Translations under genes and position numbers: made by a program
Virus genome (UHGV): UHGV-1718161
Reading direction: 5' to 3' (one strand)
DNA: 10,522 nt
From: a virus
Notes under the pieces: model-generated
The model's database searches: none
Told to the model about the DNA's origin: nothing
Seen by the model: only the letters and a program-made list of their open reading frames with translations
Part shown: in pieces, positions 1-10,516 of the stretch
How positions within the stretch are numbered: the stretch's first letter is position 1
How the letters are laid out: every line of letters begins with the position of its first letter

Positions 1-81
1 ACTCTTACCAGCAAACGCCCCTTTGTTGGGGTGTCGCCAGTACGTGTTCACGCTGGGCGGGAAAGGCAGGATCAGCTTCAT
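1..81 (-). CDS. rusA: RusA-family Holliday-junction resolvase, N-terminal 27 codons only (gene continues beyond the window start)
   Basis: Reverse complement of 1-81 reads ATG(81-79) MKLILPFPPSVNTYWRHPNKGAFAGKS. The L-P-x-P-P-S-x-N-x-Y-W-R pattern matches the N-terminal motif of RusA as I recall it (LPWPPSNNRYYR). The ATG overlaps the upstream stop (ATGA at 78-81), suggesting translational coupling. Too short to be certain. Confidence 0.45.
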   Translation of the reverse strand, partial: MKLILPFPPSVNTYWRHPNKGAFAGKS

Positions 82-404
82 ACTTTCAGGCCCCTCTCAT
101 GTAACCAGTGGGCTGCACGCAGCCTGGCGTTTTCCTCACCGACAAGCAGTGAGCGGATAATCCCGACCGCCTCGCTGTCGTCGTCCTTCACCGCGGTATG
201 AAGCGTGATGCCCCGGGCCACGCCACGCTTTATCGTGATGACGCCTTTTTTCTCCAGTGCGCGAAGATGCTCTACCGCTGCATTCACTGAACGGTATCCC
301 AGCATGGTTGCCACCTCCTGATTGGTTGGCGGAAAGCCACGCTCTTTCTGATAAGAAATCAGCATATCCAGCACCTGCTGCTGGCATTGAGTTAACGTCG
401 TCAT
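78..404 (-). CDS. LexA N-terminal DNA-binding-domain-like protein (winged HTH), no S24 peptidase domain
   Basis: ORF track 78..437 starts at a GTG; I prefer the in-frame ATG at 404-402 (MTTLTQCQQQVLDMLISYQKERGFPPTNQEVATMLGYRSVNAAVEHLRALEKKGVITI...). This aligns with the LexA N-terminus and recognition helix as I recall them (MKALTARQQEVFDLI...RSPNAAEEHLKALARKGVIEI). Only about 40 residues follow, so there is no cleavage/peptidase domain. TAATG overlap with the upstream gene stop. Confidence 0.6.
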   Translation of the reverse strand: MTTLTQCQQQVLDMLISYQKERGFPPTNQEVATMLGYRSVNAAVEHLRALEKKGVITIKRGVARGITLHTAVKDDDSEAVGIIRSLLVGEENARLRAAHWLHERGLKV

Positions 405-892
405 TACGCCCCCACGTAATTCCCTGACAGATACCACTCATCACTCGATACAGCGCGCTTGCTGCTTTTCCGTAAACACTGCTCACGACGCGCCAGAAAA
501 TTGTTTCGTTCTGGCTGGGAATGGCTTTCACGGAATGCCGCCATCCACACCGTTGCAGCACGACGGTATAAGCCCCTGGACTCCAGTTCTTCAGCCTGGC
601 GGGTCAGGCACAAAATCTCCCGCGGGTCGTTAGTGCCGACATAGAAATTGCGCACAGGTCTGGTTTCACGAACTGGTTGCGGTTCCGCCTCCTGCGCTCT
701 CTCAGTCAGGCGCGGGAAATGTCTGCGTGTATCCCCTTCACAACGGTGAGCCACACGACCACTCTGACGTAACTTGCTTGCTGACTGCAGAACGCGCTGC
801 CGTGAGTAACCTGCAAAAGCATCCGCAATGTCTCCGGAAGTACACCCCGGATGGGCTTCAATGTATTTCTGAACTTCATTCAAAAGACTCAT
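404..892 (-). CDS. small putative transcriptional regulator (winged-helix-like N-terminus, PerC/ANR-like C-terminal motif); function uncertain
   Basis: ORF track 404..898 begins at a GTG; the first ATG is at 892-890, preceded by GGGGG and lying 2 nt after the replication-gene stop. The C-terminal segment ...RGLYRRAATVWMAAF... resembles the RRAA-W motif of PerC/ANR-type regulators (recalled, weak). Confidence 0.5.
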   Translation of the reverse strand: MSLLNEVQKYIEAHPGCTSGDIADAFAGYSRQRVLQSASKLRQSGRVAHRCEGDTRRHFPRLTERAQEAEPQPVRETRPVRNFYVGTNDPREILCLTRQAEELESRGLYRRAATVWMAAFRESHSQPERNNFLARREQCLRKSSKRAVSSDEWYLSGNYVGA

Positions 893-894
893 GA

Positions 895-1836
895 TCACCC
901 CCTGAATCCTGCCGGGATCTGGCTGTAGTCCACGTTGTCGTAACTGGCTTTGAAGTACGGGTCTTCGCGTTTTTCGGTGTACGTGCTGACGGACGGCGAT
1001 AAGCGCAGGGAAAGCTCATCCCATTTTTCCCGCAGCTTCGACGGGCTGAGCACGTTACGGCACCAGAACGGATCGCGGCTGACGCGGCTGTACATCTCGC
1101 AGATTTGTTTGTGAGTACGACCATCCTGCACACACATCAGGCGAATTTCGTTTGCCCAGGCTGTCCAGTTCGGTTCTTTGGGACGAACCACCTCGCCGTC
1201 ACATTCGGCGGCCTGCTCGTACAGGGCGATGATTTTTTTCCAGAGCCACTGTGCGCAGGTCAAATCATCCTGCGTTCCCCACTGGCGCTTTTTAGGGCTG
1301 AATACAACCGCATTAGGATGGCGAGTTAAAAACTCCTGTTCAGCCGTCTGCGTGTCCGGTTGCGAAGCGTCCGGACGAGAAGTTTTTTTATCTGACGGAT
1401 CATGTTTTGATTTTACTGACGGATCCCCGCCAGATTCTGACGGGTGAAAACCCGCTTTTTTGCCAGATTTCGACGCATCAAATTTTGACGGGTCAGATTT
1501 TGATGCGTCAGATTTTGACGGGTCAGAATCTGACAATTGAGAAAATGCCGCTGCCTGAAGCTTCGCAACGTTAAGCTGATAAACATTCGACGCATTGCGG
1601 TTACCCTGGCGACGCGCCTTACGCGTTAACCAGCCTTCTGCTTCCAGCCGTGCGATAGCCGTTCTGACGGTACTCATCCCCGCGCCAATCTGACGGGCAA
1701 TGGTTTCAATTGATGGCCAGCACACACCTTCGTCATTACTGAAATCAGCCAGGCGGGCCATAATTGCCACGCTGGATAATTTCATGCCTGACGCAGCGCA
1801 ACCATCCCATACATAGCCGGTTAATTTAGTGCTCAT
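895..1836 (-). CDS. phage replication initiation protein (lambda O-like / replisome organizer) with internal origin iterons
   Basis: 313-aa ORF; ATG at 1836-1834 with GAGG upstream. N-terminal winged-HTH-like segment (SSVAIMARLADFSNDEGVCWPSIETIARQIGAGMSTVRTAIARLEAEGWL). Central low-complexity pentapeptide repeats (DPSKS/DASKS) are encoded by 15-bp DNA direct repeats, the arrangement lambda uses for ori inside O. Sits downstream of cro/CII as expected. Confidence 0.8.
   Translation of the reverse strand: MSTKLTGYVWDGCAASGMKLSSVAIMARLADFSNDEGVCWPSIETIARQIGAGMSTVRTAIARLEAEGWLTRKARRQGNRNASNVYQLNVAKLQAAAFSQLSDSDPSKSDASKSDPSKFDASKSGKKAGFHPSESGGDPSVKSKHDPSDKKTSRPDASQPDTQTAEQEFLTRHPNAVVFSPKKRQWGTQDDLTCAQWLWKKIIALYEQAAECDGEVVRPKEPNWTAWANEIRLMCVQDGRTHKQICEMYSRVSRDPFWCRNVLSPSKLREKWDELSLRLSPSVSTYTEKREDPYFKASYDNVDYSQIPAGFRG
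1431..1538. repeat. iteron array (about 6 tandem 15-16-bp direct repeats, consensus CAGATTTTGACGGGT) inside the replication gene; probable phage origin of replication
   Basis: Seen directly: cagattctgacgggtg (1431-1446), ccagatttcgacgcat (1463-1478), caaattttgacgggt (1479-1493), cagattttgatgcgt (1494-1508), cagattttgacgggt (1509-1523), cagaatctgacaatt (1524-1538). Degenerate CTGACGGAT copies lie at about 1391-1400 and 1416-1424. Confidence 0.65.
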
Positions 1837-1845
1837 GACCGACCT

Positions 1846-2184
1846 CTATTTCCCTGAATTTACGACGAAACTGTTCGAGCGGACTGAAGCATTCATGCTC
1901 ATAGCCTTCGCGGAGGTAGATAACCCGTTGTGTTTCCGGCTCCCAACGAATGACTCTGACGGGTACTCCGTAGTGATCTTTGAACCAGCGGTTAACTTGT
2001 CGCAAAGGACTGTCTCCTTTTGCCGGTTAAAATCACCCACAGCCCACTCTGCAAAGCTGTGGGTTACAATTACCCTGCCACCTGGTACATTTACTGCATA
2101 GCAATACTCCACCTTCGCTTTTCCACCCGGTACAGGAAGCGCAATCAGTTGCGAGCGACGGTAGTGTGTTGTTAAACTGTTCAT
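1846..2184 (-). CDS. hypothetical phage early protein (112 aa)
   Basis: ATG at 2184-2182 overlaps the stop of the upstream CII-like gene (ATGA), with GGAGAA 8 nt upstream. No family recognised. The plus-strand ORF 1829..2101 on the same DNA is rejected in its favour. Confidence 0.55.
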
Positions 2185-2732
2185 GCGTTAGTTTCTCCAC
2201 AGTCACGACACGCCACGGCGCCCGGAGCTGCACACTCGCGGGCGTCACTACTTTCTGAAACGCAAAAGATTTTGTAGACCAGAGCTGCATGCTCCTGCAG
2301 CTTCGAAATTGAGAGGTACAGCTCATCGTTAATTGCTGTCTTCTCATGCGGTTCCACTACACCGTCTTCAATTGCTGAACGAATCTGTCTGGAATAACTG
2401 CCGATCTGTTCAATGACTTCCAGCAGACGCTGGTTAATATCGGCATTGTCCACATCCTCGACGTCAGGAAGAGACACAAAGATGCCATTTGCAGACTGCG
2501 CCACAGCGTCAGCAATGAAGTGAGTTCCACCAGCACGTTGCAAAATCATTGCCCATCCCAGCGGGAAAATCTGATCGCCATCGGCACGAAGGCGGTTAAA
2601 TAATGCGTTCTCTGTTACGTCCAGCCAGTCAGCAGCTTCAGCGTAACCCCCCGGCAACGCTGCGATAGTTTTTCTGACAGCTTTCACGTACCACTCAGGC
2701 TGTTTTTCTACTTTCCAGTGATGCTTACCCAC
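2181..2732 (-). CDS. CII-like phage regulatory protein (phage 186 CII / CP76-type), 183 aa
   Basis: ORF track runs to 2843 but that would overlap cro. GTG at 2732-2730 with GAGGAG 6 nt upstream starts 29 nt after the cro stop. Residue pattern (...[21 protein letters not shown]...FIADAVAQ...) resembles the 186-type CII family as I remember it; family assignment is moderate. Confidence 0.6.
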
Positions 2733-2760
2733 GGTTAACTCCTCGTTTCTGTGGTTACGT

Positions 2761-3024
2761 TTACGCAGCTGAACCGCTAACTTTTGAATAGCACTCAGGT
2801 AATCCATCATTTGGATTGGGGTAAATATCAGGACGCAGTTCATGAGGGGTCACGGACCAGTTTCCCAACTCACAAAGTTGTAAAACCCGTTCTGACGGGA
2901 CTTGATTGTTAATTACCCAATTAGCGACGGATTGAGTGGACTTAAAACCAAAGTGACGGGCTACTTCAGATAAAGATTTTCCCGCAGCTTTTACTGCTTT
3001 CTCTGTGTAGTTTTGAGATGACAT
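2761..3024 (-). CDS. cro: Cro-like HTH regulator (YdaS/Cro family)
   Basis: 87-aa ORF divergent from the cI-like gene; ATG at 3024-3022 with GGAGGAG upstream. HTH segment (LSEVARHFGFKSTQSVANWV) and the ...ERVLQLCELGNWSVTPHELRPD... pattern typical of YdaS/Cro-type proteins (recalled). Confidence 0.8.
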   Translation of the reverse strand: MSSQNYTEKAVKAAGKSLSEVARHFGFKSTQSVANWVINNQVPSERVLQLCELGNWSVTPHELRPDIYPNPNDGLPECYSKVSGSAA

Positions 3025-3056: not shown

Positions 3057-3092
3057 CTACTTAAAATAGCAAAATGCAACTACTTAAAATAG
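3057..3092. promoter_or_regulatory. OR-like operator/promoter region between divergent cro and cI: two copies of the 13-bp site CTACTTAAAATAG
   Basis: Seen directly: ctacttaaaatag at 3057-3069 and again at 3080-3092 (centres 23 bp apart), in the 70-bp gap between the cro start (3024) and the cI start. Related 13-mers with the same CTA...TAG ends occur at 3893-3905 and 5305-5317. Confidence 0.5.
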
Positions 3093-3094
3093 AA

Positions 3095-3835
3095 ATGACT
3101 AGCGTATGTGATGCGAGTAATCTTCTACCTATGGTAGAAGAACAGAAGTATCCAGATTTCGCCAAGAGACTAAACGAGCTAATGACAAACAAGGGAATTT
3201 CTGTCACCCAACTCAAAAGTCTTGTGGGCGTTACATATGAAATGGCGCGGCGATACACAATCGGCGCTGCGAAGCCTCGTGCCTCTGTCATGAATAAACT
3301 TGCATTGGCTCTGGGGGTATCAGCTTCATATTTAGAATATGGTGTTGGCGAGAGAGAAGGATGTAAGGAAATGGCAAGCATCCCCAATCCAACAAAACCC
3401 GATGTATACAGGATAGAAGTTTTGGATCTTAGCGTTAGCGCAGGACCTGGGACCTATATGCTTTCAGACTATGTTGATGTGCTCTACGCCATTGAGTTCA
3501 CAACAGAGCATGCCCGTTCTCTTTTCGGTAATCGTTCTCAAGATGATATTAAAGTTATGACTGTAAATGGCGACAGCATGTCCCCTACTCTAGTTTCCGG
3601 AGATCGACTGTTTGTCGACATTTCTGTTCGCAACTTCCAAACTGATGGTGTTTACTCTTTCGTTTATGGTAAGACGTTCCACGTTAAACGTCTACAAATG
3701 CAAGGCAACAAACTCGCCGTTCTTTCGGATAATCCAGCCTATGAGAAATGGTACATTGATGAGAAGTCCCAAGATCAACTTTATGTTATGGGCAAAGCAT
3801 TGATACACGAATCAATTAAATACAACCGGCTTTAG
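3095..3835 (+). CDS. cI: cI-type prophage repressor (N-terminal XRE-family HTH, C-terminal LexA-like S24 peptidase domain)
   Basis: HTH (FAKRLNELMTNKGISVTQLKSLVGVTYEMARRY), S24 serine motif (VNGDSMSPTL) and downstream catalytic Lys (FHVKRL). Start is ambiguous: the ORF-track ATG at 3074 lies between the two operator copies, so I prefer ATG 3095 (leaderless-style); ATG 3131 is also possible. Stop TAG 3833-3835. Confidence 0.85.
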   Translation: MTSVCDASNLLPMVEEQKYPDFAKRLNELMTNKGISVTQLKSLVGVTYEMARRYTIGAAKPRASVMNKLALALGVSASYLEYGVGEREGCKEMASIPNPTKPDVYRIEVLDLSVSAGPGTYMLSDYVDVLYAIEFTTEHARSLFGNRSQDDIKVMTVNGDSMSPTLVSGDRLFVDISVRNFQTDGVYSFVYGKTFHVKRLQMQGNKLAVLSDNPAYEKWYIDEKSQDQLYVMGKALIHESIKYNRL

Positions 3836-4006: not shown

Positions 4007-5083
4007 ATGACAAAATCAATTTGTTTTTTTAATCATAAAGGTGGGGTAAGTAAAACCACAACAACCTTCAATCTTGGATGGGCACTTGCGGATGAAGGCA
4101 AGAAAGTATTGATGGTTGACCTTGATTCGCAATGTAATCTAACAGGAATGGTTCTTGGCTATGAAAAGATTGATGAGGGTTTAGATTCTTTTTATTCTAG
4201 CAGAGATAACTTAACTCTTGGACCTATTGTAGAATATTTGATTAATGGCGGACAACCTGAAGCATACCTTGAAAAAGAAACGGGAAAATTACACCCTACA
4301 CTGCATGAAAACCTTCTGCTTCTTCCCGGACATTTAGATGTTTCGGACTTAGATTCACAGATAAGTGTTTCTCTAAAAATTGCTGCTGGTATTCCTGCTA
4401 CAAGAAATATACCAGGGAACCTGCCAAAAATATTACAGCTAATCGCCTTGAAGAATAATATTGATTACATTCTTTATGATCTCAGCCCTAATGTTGGAGG
4501 TTTAAATGAAGTAGTTCTCATGTCAAGTGACTATTTTATCGTACCTGTAGCTCCAGACTTTTTTTGCTGGCAAGCAATTCGCTCTCTCTCAAAAAATATA
4601 CCTCGCTGGCACAAAGAATTAGCATTATTTAAAGAAAATAATGATGGTAACTCTTCACAATCAATTAAAAATGCACCGCAGTTTCTAGGTATGATTCAGC
4701 AGAGATACAGGCCGCGTAAAGGAGCACCTGTAAAATCTTTCGAAAAATGGATGGCAGCTATCCGTGATGCTGTTGATTCGATCTTAGTGCCAAATCTAGA
4801 AAAAATTACCTGCATAATTCCACGAGATAAAGTGCAACATGCAATTAACAAAACAACAGTCAGTGGAGATTTATCAGCCTATGATCTTGCGCATATTTCC
4901 GATTTCAACTCATTAATCGCAATAAGCCAACAACTAGCGACACCTGTTTTCTCCATCAGTGATCAGCAAATTCGCGATTCAGGGCAATTTGGGCATGCCT
5001 TAAATACAATGAAATCAAGCAGAGACGCCTTTAACGAACAATTTAAAGGGCTGGCTCAACGAGTTCTAGAACTTACAAAGTAA
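4007..5083 (+). CDS. ParA/MinD-superfamily ATPase with a roughly 120-aa C-terminal extension (358 aa); candidate lysogen-expressed exclusion/defence protein
   Basis: Deviant Walker A NHKGGVSKTT (res 9-18), ParA-type LMVDLDSQCNL, Walker-B-like ILYDLSP. AAGGA/GAGAAA RBS before ATG 4007. Sits in a visibly AT-rich segment directly downstream of cI in the same orientation and is followed by an intrinsic terminator. No ParB-like partner ORF or parS-like repeats nearby. Confidence 0.85.
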   Translation: MTKSICFFNHKGGVSKTTTTFNLGWALADEGKKVLMVDLDSQCNLTGMVLGYEKIDEGLDSFYSSRDNLTLGPIVEYLINGGQPEAYLEKETGKLHPTLHENLLLLPGHLDVSDLDSQISVSLKIAAGIPATRNIPGNLPKILQLIALKNNIDYILYDLSPNVGGLNEVVLMSSDYFIVPVAPDFFCWQAIRSLSKNIPRWHKELALFKENNDGNSSQSIKNAPQFLGMIQQRYRPRKGAPVKSFEKWMAAIRDAVDSILVPNLEKITCIIPRDKVQHAINKTTVSGDLSAYDLAHISDFNSLIAISQQLATPVFSISDQQIRDSGQFGHALNTMKSSRDAFNEQFKGLAQRVLELTK

Positions 5084-5090
5084 TGCATGT

Positions 5091-5127
5091 GCCCGGCCGC
5101 ATAACCGGGCTTTACTCTTCTTTCTCC
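5091..5127 (+). terminator. rho-independent terminator after the ParA-like gene
   Basis: GCCCGG (5091-5096), loop ccgcataa, CCGGGC (5105-5110), followed by a T-rich tract tttactcttctttct. Confidence 0.6.
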
Positions 5128-5268
5128 CTGATTAATCTCATAAAAAACTCCCTCCTCATAATTCACTATGCTCAATACCTACTCCAACTTCGTGCGATAT
5201 TTTCAGTTTACAGCATAGTAAATCAGCAAAAACATTTAACTTTCAATTAATTATAGAAAAATCATAGA

Positions 5269-5326
5269 CAACAACAAATATCTACTTTTTGTTGTTGATT
5301 TTTGCTACTTTAAGTAGCAACATAAT
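5269..5326 (+). promoter_or_regulatory. pL/OL-like regulatory region: two adjacent palindromes plus a -10-like CATAAT
   Basis: Inverted repeat caacaacaaa (5269-5278) / tttgttgttg (5288-5297). Perfect 19-bp palindrome ttgctacttTaagtagcaa (5302-5320) containing the operator-like 13-mer CTACTTTAAGTAG (5305-5317). CATAAT at 5321-5326, TTGATT at 5295-5300 (spacing not ideal). Position mirrors lambda oL/pL after the rex slot. Confidence 0.35.
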
Positions 5327-5404
5327 GTAAGCTATCACGGACAGGCAGGACGCCCACGAAGTAGCCTCCTGGGACATATGAAGTCCAGGATGATTCGTTA
5401 GCAA

Positions 5405-5428
5405 CAAAAAAGCGCCCTACAGGACGCT
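5405..5428 (-). terminator. rho-independent terminator of the minus-strand 173-aa gene
   Basis: On the minus strand: AGCGTCC-TGTA-GGGCGCT (7-bp stem with one G-U pair) followed by TTTTTTGTTGC, about 40 nt after the stop at 5471. Confidence 0.55.
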
Positions 5429-5430
5429 TA

Positions 5431-5443
5431 GCTCTTTAACAAT
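5431..5443 (+). promoter_or_regulatory. boxA-like antitermination motif (GCTCTTTAACAAT), rrn/phage-21-type
   Basis: Plus-strand gcttaGCTCTTTAACAATctggg matches the rrn boxA core TGCTCTTTAACAA and resembles the phage 21 nut boxA as I recall it. Lies about 110 nt downstream of the pL-like palindrome and 2 nt after a hairpin (boxB-before-boxA order, as in rrn leaders). Confidence 0.4.
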
Positions 5444-5470
5444 CTGGGTATCATCCAACCAATGCAAGAT

Positions 5471-5992
5471 TTAAGGAATCCAAGGCGAATTCAGATCTCG
5501 CCCCAACTCACGTAATGATCTTGGTCGTTCGTACATCGGATTTTTTTCCATAAGAAATTTATTTTCACAGTGAAGGCAACGGCTTGTAAGAAAATGAGAA
5601 GTTTTACCTACTGGAAGCGGATGAAGTATCGATTTTATATTTTTGGAATAACAAAGTGGGCACAGATGCACAGTTATTTCTTTTCCACTCACAATTTCAT
5701 TTTTAGAGTAAACAAAAGCACCAGAGTCAAGCTGATCAAGGACATATCCTTCTACCTTGGCACAAAAATCTTCAAACTCTGCAATTTTTGCTTTGAGATG
5801 CATCACCTCTTCATCACGAAGGCGGATCGCATCGCCAAGAGAGAAGCATTCTGCCTGAAGCGTGATTAGTTTGTTCTGGAGTTCAATGGTTGCAGCTTTA
5901 ACTTCTGCATCCGTTTTCGCGTCATTAATAACCTTAGCAAGACCGGCAGTCTCCTTTATAGCGGCCATAGCCGCAGACAGTTCAGCTATCAC
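5471..5992 (-). CDS. hypothetical coiled-coil protein with a C-terminal C4 zinc ribbon (173 aa)
   Basis: N-terminal 80 residues are Ala/Lys/Glu-rich and helical; CPLC (111-114) and CLHC (139-142) form CxxC-x24-CxxC. ORF-track start is a GTG at 5992; the first ATG is at 5968-5966, neither with a strong SD. Own terminator downstream. Antisense plus-strand ORFs (5570..5869, 5862..6056) look like low-complexity shadows. Confidence 0.7.
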   Translation of the reverse strand: MIAELSAAMAAIKETAGLAKVINDAKTDAEVKAATIELQNKLITLQAECFSLGDAIRLRDEEVMHLKAKIAEFEDFCAKVEGYVLDQLDSGAFVYSKNEIVSGKEITVHLCPLCYSKNIKSILHPLPVGKTSHFLTSRCLHCENKFLMEKNPMYERPRSLRELGRDLNSPWIP

Positions 5993-9036: not shown

Positions 9037-9386
9037 TGGAGCCATACAGCCTCACACTCGATGAGGCCTGTCATTTTCTCAAGATATCCAGACCGACTGC
9101 CATTAACTGGATACGCACAGGGCGTCTTCAGGCAACACGCAAAGATCCCACTAAGAATAAATCTCCTTACCTCACAACACGACAAGCCTGCATTGCGGCT
9201 CTTCAGTCTCCGCTGCATACTGTCCAGGTGAGCGCGGGTGATGGCATAACAGAGGAAAGAAAATGTCACTCTTCCGCAGAGGTGAAATATGGTACGCCAG
9301 TTTCACATTGCCGAACGGTAAAAGATTTAAACAGTCTCTTGGAACAAAGGACAAAAGGCAGGCGACAGAACTCCATGACAAGCTAA
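9036..9386 (+). CDS. xis: excisionase (P22 Xis-like, 116 aa)
   Basis: ATG 9036 overlaps the upstream stop (TAATG), with GAGGTG upstream. The ORF-track frame extends upstream to 8952 but coupling favours 9036. Lies immediately upstream of int and overlaps it (9263-9386). Sequence ([38 protein letters not shown]...) matches my memory of P22 Xis. Confidence 0.75.
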
Positions 9387-10426
9387 AGGCTGAAGCATGG
9401 CGGGTCAGCAAACTTGGTGAAATACCTGATATAACGTTCGAGGAAGCGTGTATCAGGTGGCTTGAAGAGAAAGCACATAAAAAATCACTGGACGATGACA
9501 AAAGCCGGATCGGATTCTGGCTTCAACATTTCGCAGGAATGCAACTAAGAGACATTACTGAATCAAAAATTTATTCAGCAATGCAGAAAATGACGAACCG
9601 GCGTCATGAGGAAAACTGGAAACTCAGGACAGAAGCATGCAGAAAAAAAGGGAAACCTGTTCCAGAATACACGCCAAAACCAGCGTCCGTTGCAACGAAG
9701 GCTACGCATCTTTCATTTATAAAAGCCCTACTAAGAGCCGCAGAGCGTGAATGGAAAATGCTGGATAAGGCACCAATTATTAAAGTGCCTCAACCAAAGA
9801 ATAAACGGATCCGCTGGCTGGAGCCCCATGAAGCACAAAGGCTGATTGATGAATGTCCGGAGCCATTAAAGTCTGTTGTTGAATTTGCACTGGCAACAGG
9901 CTTAAGACGCTCGAACATCATCAACCTTGAATGGCAACAAATAGACATGCAGCGCCGGGTGGCATGGATAAACCCGGAAGAGAGTAAATCAAACCGCGCA
10001 ATTGGCGTTGCGCTGAATGATACTGCATGTCGCGTTTTGAAAAAACAAATCGGGAATCATCACCGTTGGGTATTTGTGTACAAGGAAAGCTGTACCAAAC
10101 CAGACGGAACGAAAGCGCCAACAGTAAGGAAGATGCGGTATGACGCAAACACAGCCTGGAAAGCGGCGCTGAGACGGGCTGGTATTGATGATTTCAGATT
10201 TCACGACTTGAGACACACCTGGGCAAGTTGGCTGGTTCAAGCCGGAGTCCCGTTGTCAGTGTTACAGGAAATGGGAGGCTGGGAGTCTATCGAAATGGTT
10301 CGTCGATATGCTCACCTTGCACCTAATCACCTTACCGAACACGCACGGCAAATAGACTCGATCCTGAACCCATCGGTCCCAAATTCGTCCCAGTCAAAAA
10401 ATAAGGAAGGTACTAATGATGTGTAA
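9263..10426 (+). CDS. int: tyrosine-family site-specific integrase (P22 Int-like, 387 aa)
   Basis: GAGGAA RBS before ATG 9263. Catalytic signature: R in ATGLRRSN, H-x-x-R in [11 protein letters not shown], Tyr in VRRYAHL. Near-identical to my memory of P22 integrase, which uses thrW. Ends 14 bp before the tRNA 3' end. Confidence 0.95.
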
Positions 10427-10440
10427 CTTATTGATTTAAA

Positions 10441-10516
10441 TGGTGCCGATAATAGGAGTCGAACCTACGACCTTCGCATTACGAATGCGCTGCTCTACCA
10501 ACTGAGCTATATCGGC
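10441..10516 (-). tRNA. thrW: tRNA-Thr (anticodon CGU), thrW-type; prophage attachment site at its 3' end
   Basis: Reverse complement reads GCCGATATAGCTCAGTTGGTAGAGCAGCGCATTCGTAATGCGAAGGTCGTAGGTTCGACTCCTATTATCGGCACCA. Acceptor stem GCCGATA/TATCGGC, anticodon loop TTCGTAA (CGT), T-loop TTCGACT, encoded CCA. Confidence 0.9.

Follow-up and report, generated by a model that had tools for sequence, protein, structure and literature searches.

A probable replication origin within the initiator gene of an SfIV/SfII-type lambdoid prophage

The initiator gene and its domains

We analysed a 10,522-nt stretch of virus genome UHGV-1718161 (hereafter the window), and in particular a set of short repeats inside its O-like replication initiator gene. 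The window comprises the immunity and early-right region of a lambdoid prophage together with its integrase end. In the list of open reading frames (ORFs) the initiator gene occupies 895-1836 on the minus strand and encodes 313 amino acids (aa; 942 bp). The protein matches PHROG 391, 'replication initiation O-like' (E=6e-135), and over 942 bp the gene is 99.6% identical in nucleotide sequence to that of SfIV gp41 and 98.8% identical to that of the SfII 'O protein'. Full-length copies are present in 1576 of 5426 complete E. coli genomes, and relatives occur in Salmonella, Citrobacter, Klebsiella, Yersinia, Proteus and Erwinia. K-12-type (O16:H48) genomes match only positions 1-709 of the query; their copy lacks the N-terminal quarter, adjoins yfdN, and appears to be yfdO, an N-terminally truncated form of the initiator.

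The initiator begins with a winged-helix DNA-binding domain (codons 1-100; 1537-1836, minus strand), the presumed reader of the repeats. Residues 23-70 of this domain belong to Pfam HTH_36 (PF13730; E=4e-11, 42.9 bits against a cut-off of 25), with weaker Pfam matches to GntR, MarR, HTH_29, PaaX, DnaD_N and RP-C. A Pfam scan at E<=0.01 gave no match to Phage_rep_O (PF04492), the family of lambda O; the protein is analogous to lambda O, and only the broader 'O-like' label of PHROG applies to it. A PDB sequence search returned only marginal MarR-type matches, and NCBIfam returned nothing useful. The C-terminal domain (codons ~165-313; 898-1344, minus strand) is exchanged independently of the N-terminal domain and the repeat array. 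Its residues 172-304 match PHROG 2357 and 4880 ('replisome organizer') and 2514 ('DnaD-like helicase loader'), and it presumably recruits the helicase or the replisome.

A palindromic array in the inter-domain linker

The linker between these domains contains two types of repeat. Tandem Repeats Finder reported 4.3 copies of a 15-bp period at 1464-1527 (consensus CAGATTTTGACGGGT), and reported the same stretch a second time as 2.1 copies of period 30. Allowing up to 3 mismatches, CAGATTTTGACGGGT has 6 matches in the 10.5 kb, all of them inside 1431-1532; 0.29 would be expected by chance, and none of 200 shuffles reached 6. Comparison with relatives defined the conserved unit as an 11-bp core, TCARAWTCTGR, followed by C or T and a free 3-nt codon (Pro or Ala). 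Core 0 (1523-1533, TCAGAATCTGA), the first site of the array, is a perfect 11-bp palindrome, TCAGA-A-TCTGA, and the head of the array reads YCAGAWTCTGA in most relatives whose linker DNA was inspected. It is followed on the minus strand by core 1 (1508-1518) and core 2 (1493-1503), both TCAAAATCTGA, core 3 (1478-1488, TCAAAATTTGA) and core 4 (1463-1473, TCGAAATCTGG). Cores 0-4 keep a strict 15-bp register across 1463-1533, and the tandem units depart from the dyad symmetry of the core at one symmetric position. An isolated core 5 (1430-1440, TCAGAATCTGG), containing the palindrome CAGAATCTG (1431-1439), lies 33 bp further on. Elsewhere in the window the core pattern has a single weak match, at 9510. 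The original prediction of six or more tandem 15-bp repeats was therefore correct as to six cores, of which only five (4.3 by Tandem Repeats Finder) are strictly tandem.

The six cores (1430-1533) correspond to codons ~102-136, after HTH_36 and before the exchangeable C-terminal domain. On the coding strand the array reads TCA GAT TCT GAC CCG TCA AAA TCT GAC GCA TCA AAA TCT GAC CCG TCA AAA TTT GAT GCG TCG AAA TCT, and the in-frame translation of the linker is SDS DPSKS DASKS DPSKF DASKS ... HPSES GG DPSVKSKH DPSDKK. Translation of ORF 895-1836 (minus strand) thus confirmed that the repeats are in frame in the O-like gene and encode DPSKS and DASKS.

The second repeat type is a pair of 24-nt direct repeats on the minus strand, at 1402-1425 (GATCCGTCAGTAAAATCAAAACAT; Dam site GATC at 1422) and 1378-1401 (GATCCGTCAGATAAAAAAACTTCT; GATC at 1398). 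Both start with GATCCGTCAG and continue as A+T-rich sequence, and the GC minimum of the whole gene (27.5% over 40 bp, 1380-1419) coincides with them. What had been read as further 15-bp copies in 1385-1425 belongs instead to these GATC-headed units. The A+T-rich pair (1378-1425) is a candidate unwinding element.

Between the array and the isolated core lies a spacer (1441-1462) of which a GGTTTT(C/G)ACCC part is conserved: codons 129-132 (GGT TTT SAC CCG) are conserved at their third positions, and codons 125-128 are variable. The plus strand of the spacer, antisense to the initiator, carries a terminator-like hairpin (1441-1454) followed by T6 (1441-1461; CGGGTGAAAACCCG CTTTTTT). This hairpin may be fortuitous, because its left arm lies in codons that vary among relatives.

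One further short sequence touches the array. The 8-mer TCTGACGG has 6 copies, all on the plus strand of the early-right operon (1391, 1436, 1663, 1689, 1955 and 2891), where 0.29 would be expected. The four copies outside the array fall in three different reading frames. The two in the coding region of the N-terminal domain lie on codons that are not conserved in relatives, and are probably chance occurrences or lineage-specific half-sites.

Architecture of the array in relatives

We collected 80 homologous loci from contigs representing one genome per species, of which 77 were codon-aligned; unless stated otherwise, the comparisons below refer to these 77 relatives. The sampled genera include Escherichia, Shigella, Pantoea, Providencia, Proteus, Yersinia, Rahnella, Erwinia, Kluyvera and Buttiauxella, so that the homologues span Enterobacterales, with N-terminal identity down to 58%. 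As anticipated in the original prediction, the number of repeats varies. The in-register array contains 2-9 cores across genera, most often 4 or 5 (5 in the window), and among near-identical E. coli copies the number of tandem pentapeptide or 15-bp units is 4 in the window, 3 in FDAARGOS_1277 and 7 in protein P0022.

The elements beyond the array keep a more regular arrangement. An isolated palindrome of the YCAGAATCTGG type, variants included, is present in 73 of the 77 relatives (as YCAGAATCTGG itself in 63), with exactly 4 nt between it and the first GATCC in every case. Measured start to start, it follows the last tandem core by 33 or 48 nt in 67 of these 73. Every relative has between 1 and 4 GATCCR motifs, and 59 have two. 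YCAGAWTCTGA arrays followed by GATCCRTCAG could serve as an annotation signature for this type of origin.

The repeats are conserved as DNA

We compared codon usage in the linker with that in the rest of the gene. In the DNA-binding domain the amino acids are highly conserved and the synonymous sites are saturated, with third-position entropies of 1.5-1.95 bits. In the core codons, third-position entropy is close to 0. Ser107 is encoded by TCA and Asp138 by GAT in all 77 homologues, Val141 by GTA in 76, and Phe130 by TTT in 96%; the third bases of Ser140, Ser143 and Ser148 are invariant. The fixed GAT and GTA codons and these Ser third bases belong to the A+T-rich pair of 24-nt repeats, which is likewise conserved as DNA. 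Spacer codons 106, 111 and 116 vary at every one of their positions (third-position entropy 1.7-1.8 bits). The codon for Asp depends on its DNA context: the array cores (TCTGAC) use GAC (~80%), and GAT is used where the codon contributes to a GATC. Among columns whose conserved residue has 4- or 6-fold degeneracy, the dominant codon had a median fraction of 0.97 in the linker (15 columns) versus 0.42 in the N-terminal domain (40 columns; Mann-Whitney p=1.6e-7). A position matrix was built from 315 cores of the 77 relatives; the pattern used to find them itself fixes C1, A4, T6, T8 and G9, and the matrix is informative only at positions 0, 2, 3, 5, 7 and 10 and in the flanks, where the spacer positions are degenerate.

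A pairwise comparison gave the same picture. In nucleotide sequence, the N-terminal domain and repeat region of Citrobacter phage phiNP are 83% identical to those of the window, whereas its C-terminal domain is different. Of the conserved degenerate codons, 42 of 82 within codons 1-99 show synonymous differences between the two, compared with only 3 of 44 in codons 100-152, where the replacements are multi-base changes located between cores. Because frozen positions give way to saturated ones and back again within 15 nt, the conservation cannot be put down to a recent sweep by recombination. Codons frozen according to their DNA context, beside saturated spacers and a saturated domain, indicate that the constraint acts on the nucleotide sequence. 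The repeats are under purifying selection at the DNA level, beyond the need to encode protein, and the linker is a clean example of synonymous sites frozen by a second, non-coding function.

These data bear directly on the proposal that the repeats are a low-complexity Ser/Asp/Lys/Pro linker that grew by replication slippage and is selected, if at all, as protein. Copy number does vary as it would in slippage-prone tracts, and the predicted structure is compatible with such a linker: in an AlphaFold2 model made from a 19-sequence alignment, which was poor overall (predicted local distance difference test score, pLDDT, 45.5; predicted template modelling score, pTM, 0.29), aa 99-161 had the lowest confidence and no predicted secondary structure. 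This weakly suggests that the linker is disordered and its peptide simply tolerated. However, the Ser and Val codons of the linker are fixed in genes that are synonymously saturated elsewhere, the amino acids vary (K/E/N, S/F/P) where the DNA core tolerates it, and the choice between GAC and GAT for Asp switches with DNA context. As a sole explanation the peptide is contradicted by the conservation of synonymous sites, and we consider it highly improbable.

Synonymous constraint could also arise from an overlapping gene. Two alternative ORFs are present in the window, at 1407-1574 (plus strand) and 1413-1595 (minus strand), and one antisense frame runs through the region uninterrupted in 41 of the 77 relatives. 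That frame is closed in the other 36, the remaining four frames are open in 0-2 relatives, and frame openness is in any case expected from the repeat itself. Furthermore, a continuous overlapping frame would not allow a spacer codon that is free at all three positions. Of the explanations that we weighed, this is the least probable, and we give it hardly any credence.

A constraint on the mRNA was also considered, in which the array would fold into a long hairpin controlling translation or stability of the initiator message. The 171-nt sense RNA has a predicted folding energy of -53.9 kcal/mol, against a mean of -33.1 for shuffled sequences (z=-5.3). Such folding is an automatic consequence of tandem palindromes, though, and a single 11-nt palindrome cannot fold on itself. 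Across the 77 relatives the cores keep their primary sequence and show no compensatory pairs; the commonest tandem unit keeps A3/C7, which would be mismatched in a stem; and with 2-9 copies no fixed structure is preserved. The only Rfam match is a tRNA, with none at the array. It is thus very unlikely that an RNA hairpin accounts for the conservation.

The array is inherited with the N-terminal domain

We then compared initiators in which the domains have been exchanged. Homology to phiNP ends at about position 1358 of the window, just downstream of the array; phiNP has only the N-terminal domain and the array in common with the window initiator, and carries a TIGR02220/PF09524 C-terminal domain instead. 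The reciprocal exchange is seen in mEp460_4F5, which shares only the C-terminal part (query 1-497), with a junction at about 1391, downstream of the array and just past the second GATC. Its different N-terminal domain is followed by its own 23-24-bp repeat (GGTCAAAATGAC..., 5.4 copies; locus L003, 3001-3981). With both mosaic junctions lying shortly past the array, it is transferred as a unit with the N-terminal domain.

The cores also vary together with the domain. In closer N-terminal variants, in which the turn of the helix-turn-helix is one residue longer (G-A-K/R-S-x-x-T-V), the 15-bp period is kept and the core is changed symmetrically. The variant cores read TCAAAWTTTGA or TCAA-N3-TTGA: Klebsiella phage Kp4866-6 has TCAAAATTTGA, Rahnella HX2 has TCAAATTTTGA, including at the isolated site before GATCC, and the TCAA-N3-TTGA form comes from an N-terminal variant in E. 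coli. A dimeric winged-helix reader would be expected to have palindromic sites and to change both of their halves in step, and this symmetry of the changes ties the specificity to the phage protein and not to a host factor. The cores are in this way both co-inherited and co-varying with the N-terminal domain.

More distant O-like types have unrelated repeats at the equivalent place. The initiators of Shiga toxin (Stx) phage 24B, mEp460_4F5 and ST64B have N-terminal identities to the window initiator of 43% or less. The O protein of 24B (43%) has a 22-24-bp GGTGGGGCAGGAGCTGCCC repeat in the same place (2.9 copies, encoding GGAGAA repeats; locus L087, 1438-2214), and ST64B Sb42 has yet another in-frame repeat after its winged-helix domain (locus L088, 1438-2256). 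The in-frame repeats of these three initiators are probably their iterons. The 24B record carries no annotation of its in-gene repeats.

A probable origin inside the initiator gene

Since the cores are conserved as DNA and not just as protein, the repeats are very probably the binding sites of the initiator, and we propose that 1378-1533 is probably the replication origin of this SfIV/SfII-type lambdoid prophage, placed in the inter-domain linker of its own initiator. Both the constraint at the DNA level and the exchange of N-terminal domain and array as one block support the suggestion, made from the sequence of the window alone, that the initiator recognises iterons within its own coding sequence. 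The likeness to lambda that was suggested at the same time also holds: the array follows the winged-helix domain and precedes the most A+T-rich 40 bp of the gene, which is the order found in lambda. The gene has at least three in-gene sites between its domains, dyad symmetry within the sites, an A+T-rich tract downstream, conservation at the DNA level and co-inheritance of sites and reader, as expected of a lambda-type origin. The adjacent phage gene for a helicase or helicase loader that is found in other systems (lambda P, P22 gp12) is missing.

In the mechanism that we envisage, each 11-bp dyad-symmetric core (TCAGA-W-TCTGA), whether one of the five spaced at 15 bp or the isolated one, would be occupied by a dimer of the N-terminal winged-helix domain. 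The resulting nucleoprotein complex would destabilise the adjoining A+T-rich pair of 24-nt repeats, and the exchangeable C-terminal domain would bring in the replicative helicase of the host. A GATC Dam site heads each 24-nt repeat, so methylation or SeqA may modulate firing. The DPSKS/DASKS peptide would be largely what the DNA sites happen to encode in a tolerant linker.

Several observations weigh against this proposal. At 15 bp from centre to centre (1.4 helical turns), the cores are packed more closely than the iterons of lambda and of plasmids, which are about two turns apart, and neighbouring dimers would come to lie on nearly opposite faces of the DNA. No P- or DnaC-like helicase loader gene or helicase gene follows the initiator, the next genes being PerC-like and LexA_DNA_bind-like regulators, which leaves helicase recruitment unexplained. 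The AlphaFold2 model is too poor for dimer inference or a fold search. We found no published description of this iteron or origin, including in the literature on replication of SfV, SfII and SfIV and on yfdO. Finally, the plasmid records that carry the initiator gene are an e14-like 15-kb circle, a 16-kb partial lambdoid circle, and prophages in megaplasmids; these look like excised or misassembled prophage circles and do not demonstrate autonomous replication.

The strongest competing explanation is that proteins do bind the cores, but that these form no origin: they might be an operator or roadblock through which the initiator regulates itself, might serve another regulator of the phage or of the host, or might act like a centromere. 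Operators and parC/parS centromeres are likewise characterised by tandem palindromes, the window encodes a ParA-like ATPase (4007-5083), and conservation alone is silent on which DNA transaction uses the cores. An operator, however, need not abut the conserved A+T-rich GATC element, nor always occur with an initiator-type domain, as the array does; and no sigma-70-like promoter was found in 1100-1900. A search of 1300-1650 revealed no DnaA box with 1 mismatch or fewer. A site for a host regulator is at odds with the finding that changes in the core follow the phage N-terminal variant and not the host. Overall we regard binding sites without an origin as unlikely. A centromere serving the ParA-like ATPase of the window was set aside as unlikely, because SfIV has an identical array yet no ParA-like gene is annotated in the 8.9-kb SfIV stretch examined, which includes the corresponding position beside the repressor. 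IHF sites were rejected as a separate candidate; judged by eye, the cores do not fit the IHF consensus.

If 1378-1533 is the origin, it would be a lambda-style arrangement in a different initiator family, ordinary in kind with a few architectural twists. It would leave the concept of lambdoid replication unchanged and would not surprise a specialist in phage replication. A bolder combination of the evidence is that these twists define a distinct, previously undescribed origin architecture common to a large family of enterobacterial prophages, consisting of 11-bp palindromes at 15-bp (1.4-turn) spacing, an isolated palindrome 4 nt from GATC-headed unwinding 24-mers, and a loader-free initiator. 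We put this forward only tentatively, and think it rather less likely to be right than wrong. Were it true, firing would be gated by Dam/SeqA and host DnaC, and the pentapeptide linker would simply be carried along with the DNA code.

The module is very common: besides E. coli, the Shigella serotype-converting phages SfII and SfIV carry it, and K-12-type genomes retain a truncated form. A probable origin with its recognition sequence provides a concrete target for work on replication, incompatibility and exclusion. It also explains an odd 'low-complexity' linker that has been annotated only as part of a helix-turn-helix protein.

Comparison with known replication systems

In-gene origins have been described for several lambdoid phages. 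Lambda has four iterons and an A+T-rich tract in the middle of gene O, and the six iterons of Stx phages lengthen O by 13 residues (PMC7466680). The element in the window resembles the origin of lambda, and those of Stx phages 933W and P27 with their six iterons, in several respects. The sites are read in frame as part of the segment that joins an N-terminal DNA-binding domain to a C-terminal domain with a recruitment role, and they are individually dyad-symmetric. Directly beyond them, in the reading direction of the gene, comes an A+T-rich tract. Relatives differ in their number of iterons, and origin and N-terminal domain are passed on as one module that sets specificity. It differs from lambda in that the initiator is an HTH_36 protein without detectable Phage_rep_O membership, the cores are 11 bp at 15-bp spacing whereas those of lambda are ~19 bp at ~20-24 bp, there is an isolated core and a pair of GATC-headed 24-mers, and no P-like gene follows the initiator.

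Gene 18 of P22 contains four in-gene repeats of ~20 bp, and gene 18 of phage L contains six imprecise 11-bp TGTCCAACGGA repeats, in both cases proposed as iterons from sequence (PMC8022706). Like the phage in the window, these are lambdoid phages whose non-lambda initiators have their own short in-gene repeats; unlike it, they encode a DnaB-type helicase (gp12) beside the initiator, and their repeat and initiator sequences differ. Further parallels in organisation are 24B O, the mEp460/SfV replication protein and ST64B Sb42. These genes occupy the same slot after cII/ymfL-like genes, and encode a winged helix, a linker and a C-terminal domain, with in-frame tandem repeats after the DNA-binding domain. 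The C-terminal domain of mEp460_4F5 is identical to that of the window initiator, whereas the repeats of all three types are unrelated to its cores in sequence.

Repeated initiator sites beside an A+T-rich unwinding element are also a feature of iteron plasmids (pSC101, P1, F, RK2, R6K), whose iterons, ~19-22 bp long and aligned on a single face of the helix, are bound by monomers and are not part of the rep gene. In E. coli oriC the unwinding repeats, the 13-mers, begin with GATC and are under Dam/SeqA control. The likeness to iteron plasmids and oriC is one of layout, and we claim no homology.

Other copies of the initiator and neighbouring genes

Some initiator copies occur in unusual contexts. 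Two E. coli loci (L076 and L083) contain the first 79 codons of the initiator (99% identical) in frame in a 456-aa ORF, the remainder of which is unrelated to the initiator. Rahnella HX2 has a closely similar C-terminal domain followed by a gene for a 'DNA replication protein'. A 15.2-kb circular record described as a 'plasmid' (OR902851.1; locus L090) contains a fragmented initiator copy together with mcrA, the hin invertase, tfaE and an icd fragment, and we take this circle to resemble an excised e14 element.

The surrounding genes place the initiator in the replication module of SfIV/SfII-type prophages, with a near-identical gene, matching neighbours, and integration at a tRNA-Thr gene. 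Upstream of the initiator in the direction of transcription lie a YdaS/Cro-like gene (2761-3024, minus strand) and a CII/CP76-like gene (2181-2843, minus strand), and a CI-like S24 repressor is encoded at 3074-3835 on the plus strand. Between the CII-like gene and the initiator, two minus-strand ORFs overlap in different frames (1826-2184): a small ORF for a 59-aa DUF4222 protein (1826-2005; Pfam E=9e-19) and a 112-aa ORF (1846-2184) that matches PHROG 1170 and SfIV gp40. RefSeq E. coli genomes annotate the DUF4222 ORF and the SfIV record annotates the 112-aa ORF (gp40); it is likely that at most one of these annotations is complete. Beyond the initiator lie a yfdN-type PerC-like gene of 164 aa (404-898, minus strand), with a weak N-terminal match to a MarR-like PHROG, and a LexA_DNA_bind-like regulator of 119 aa (78-437, minus strand). 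SfIV has the same PerC-like and 112-aa neighbouring ORFs, and farther downstream it encodes another regulator, an HNH endonuclease and Q.

At the other end of the window, the integrase gene (9263-10426, plus strand) adjoins a tRNA-Thr(CGT) gene (10441-10516, minus strand) that marks the prophage end. We take this tRNA gene to be thrW, the attachment site of SfII/SfIV-type phages. Beside the repressor lie the gene for the ParA/AAA_31-like ATPase (4007-5083, plus strand) and, convergent with it, a Cys-rich ORF of 173 aa (5471-5992, minus strand) that had no family match. The ATPase has a weak match to the PADLOC candidate PDC-M28B, confined to ~40 N-terminal residues. This pair of genes (4007-5992) is possibly accessory or defence cargo.

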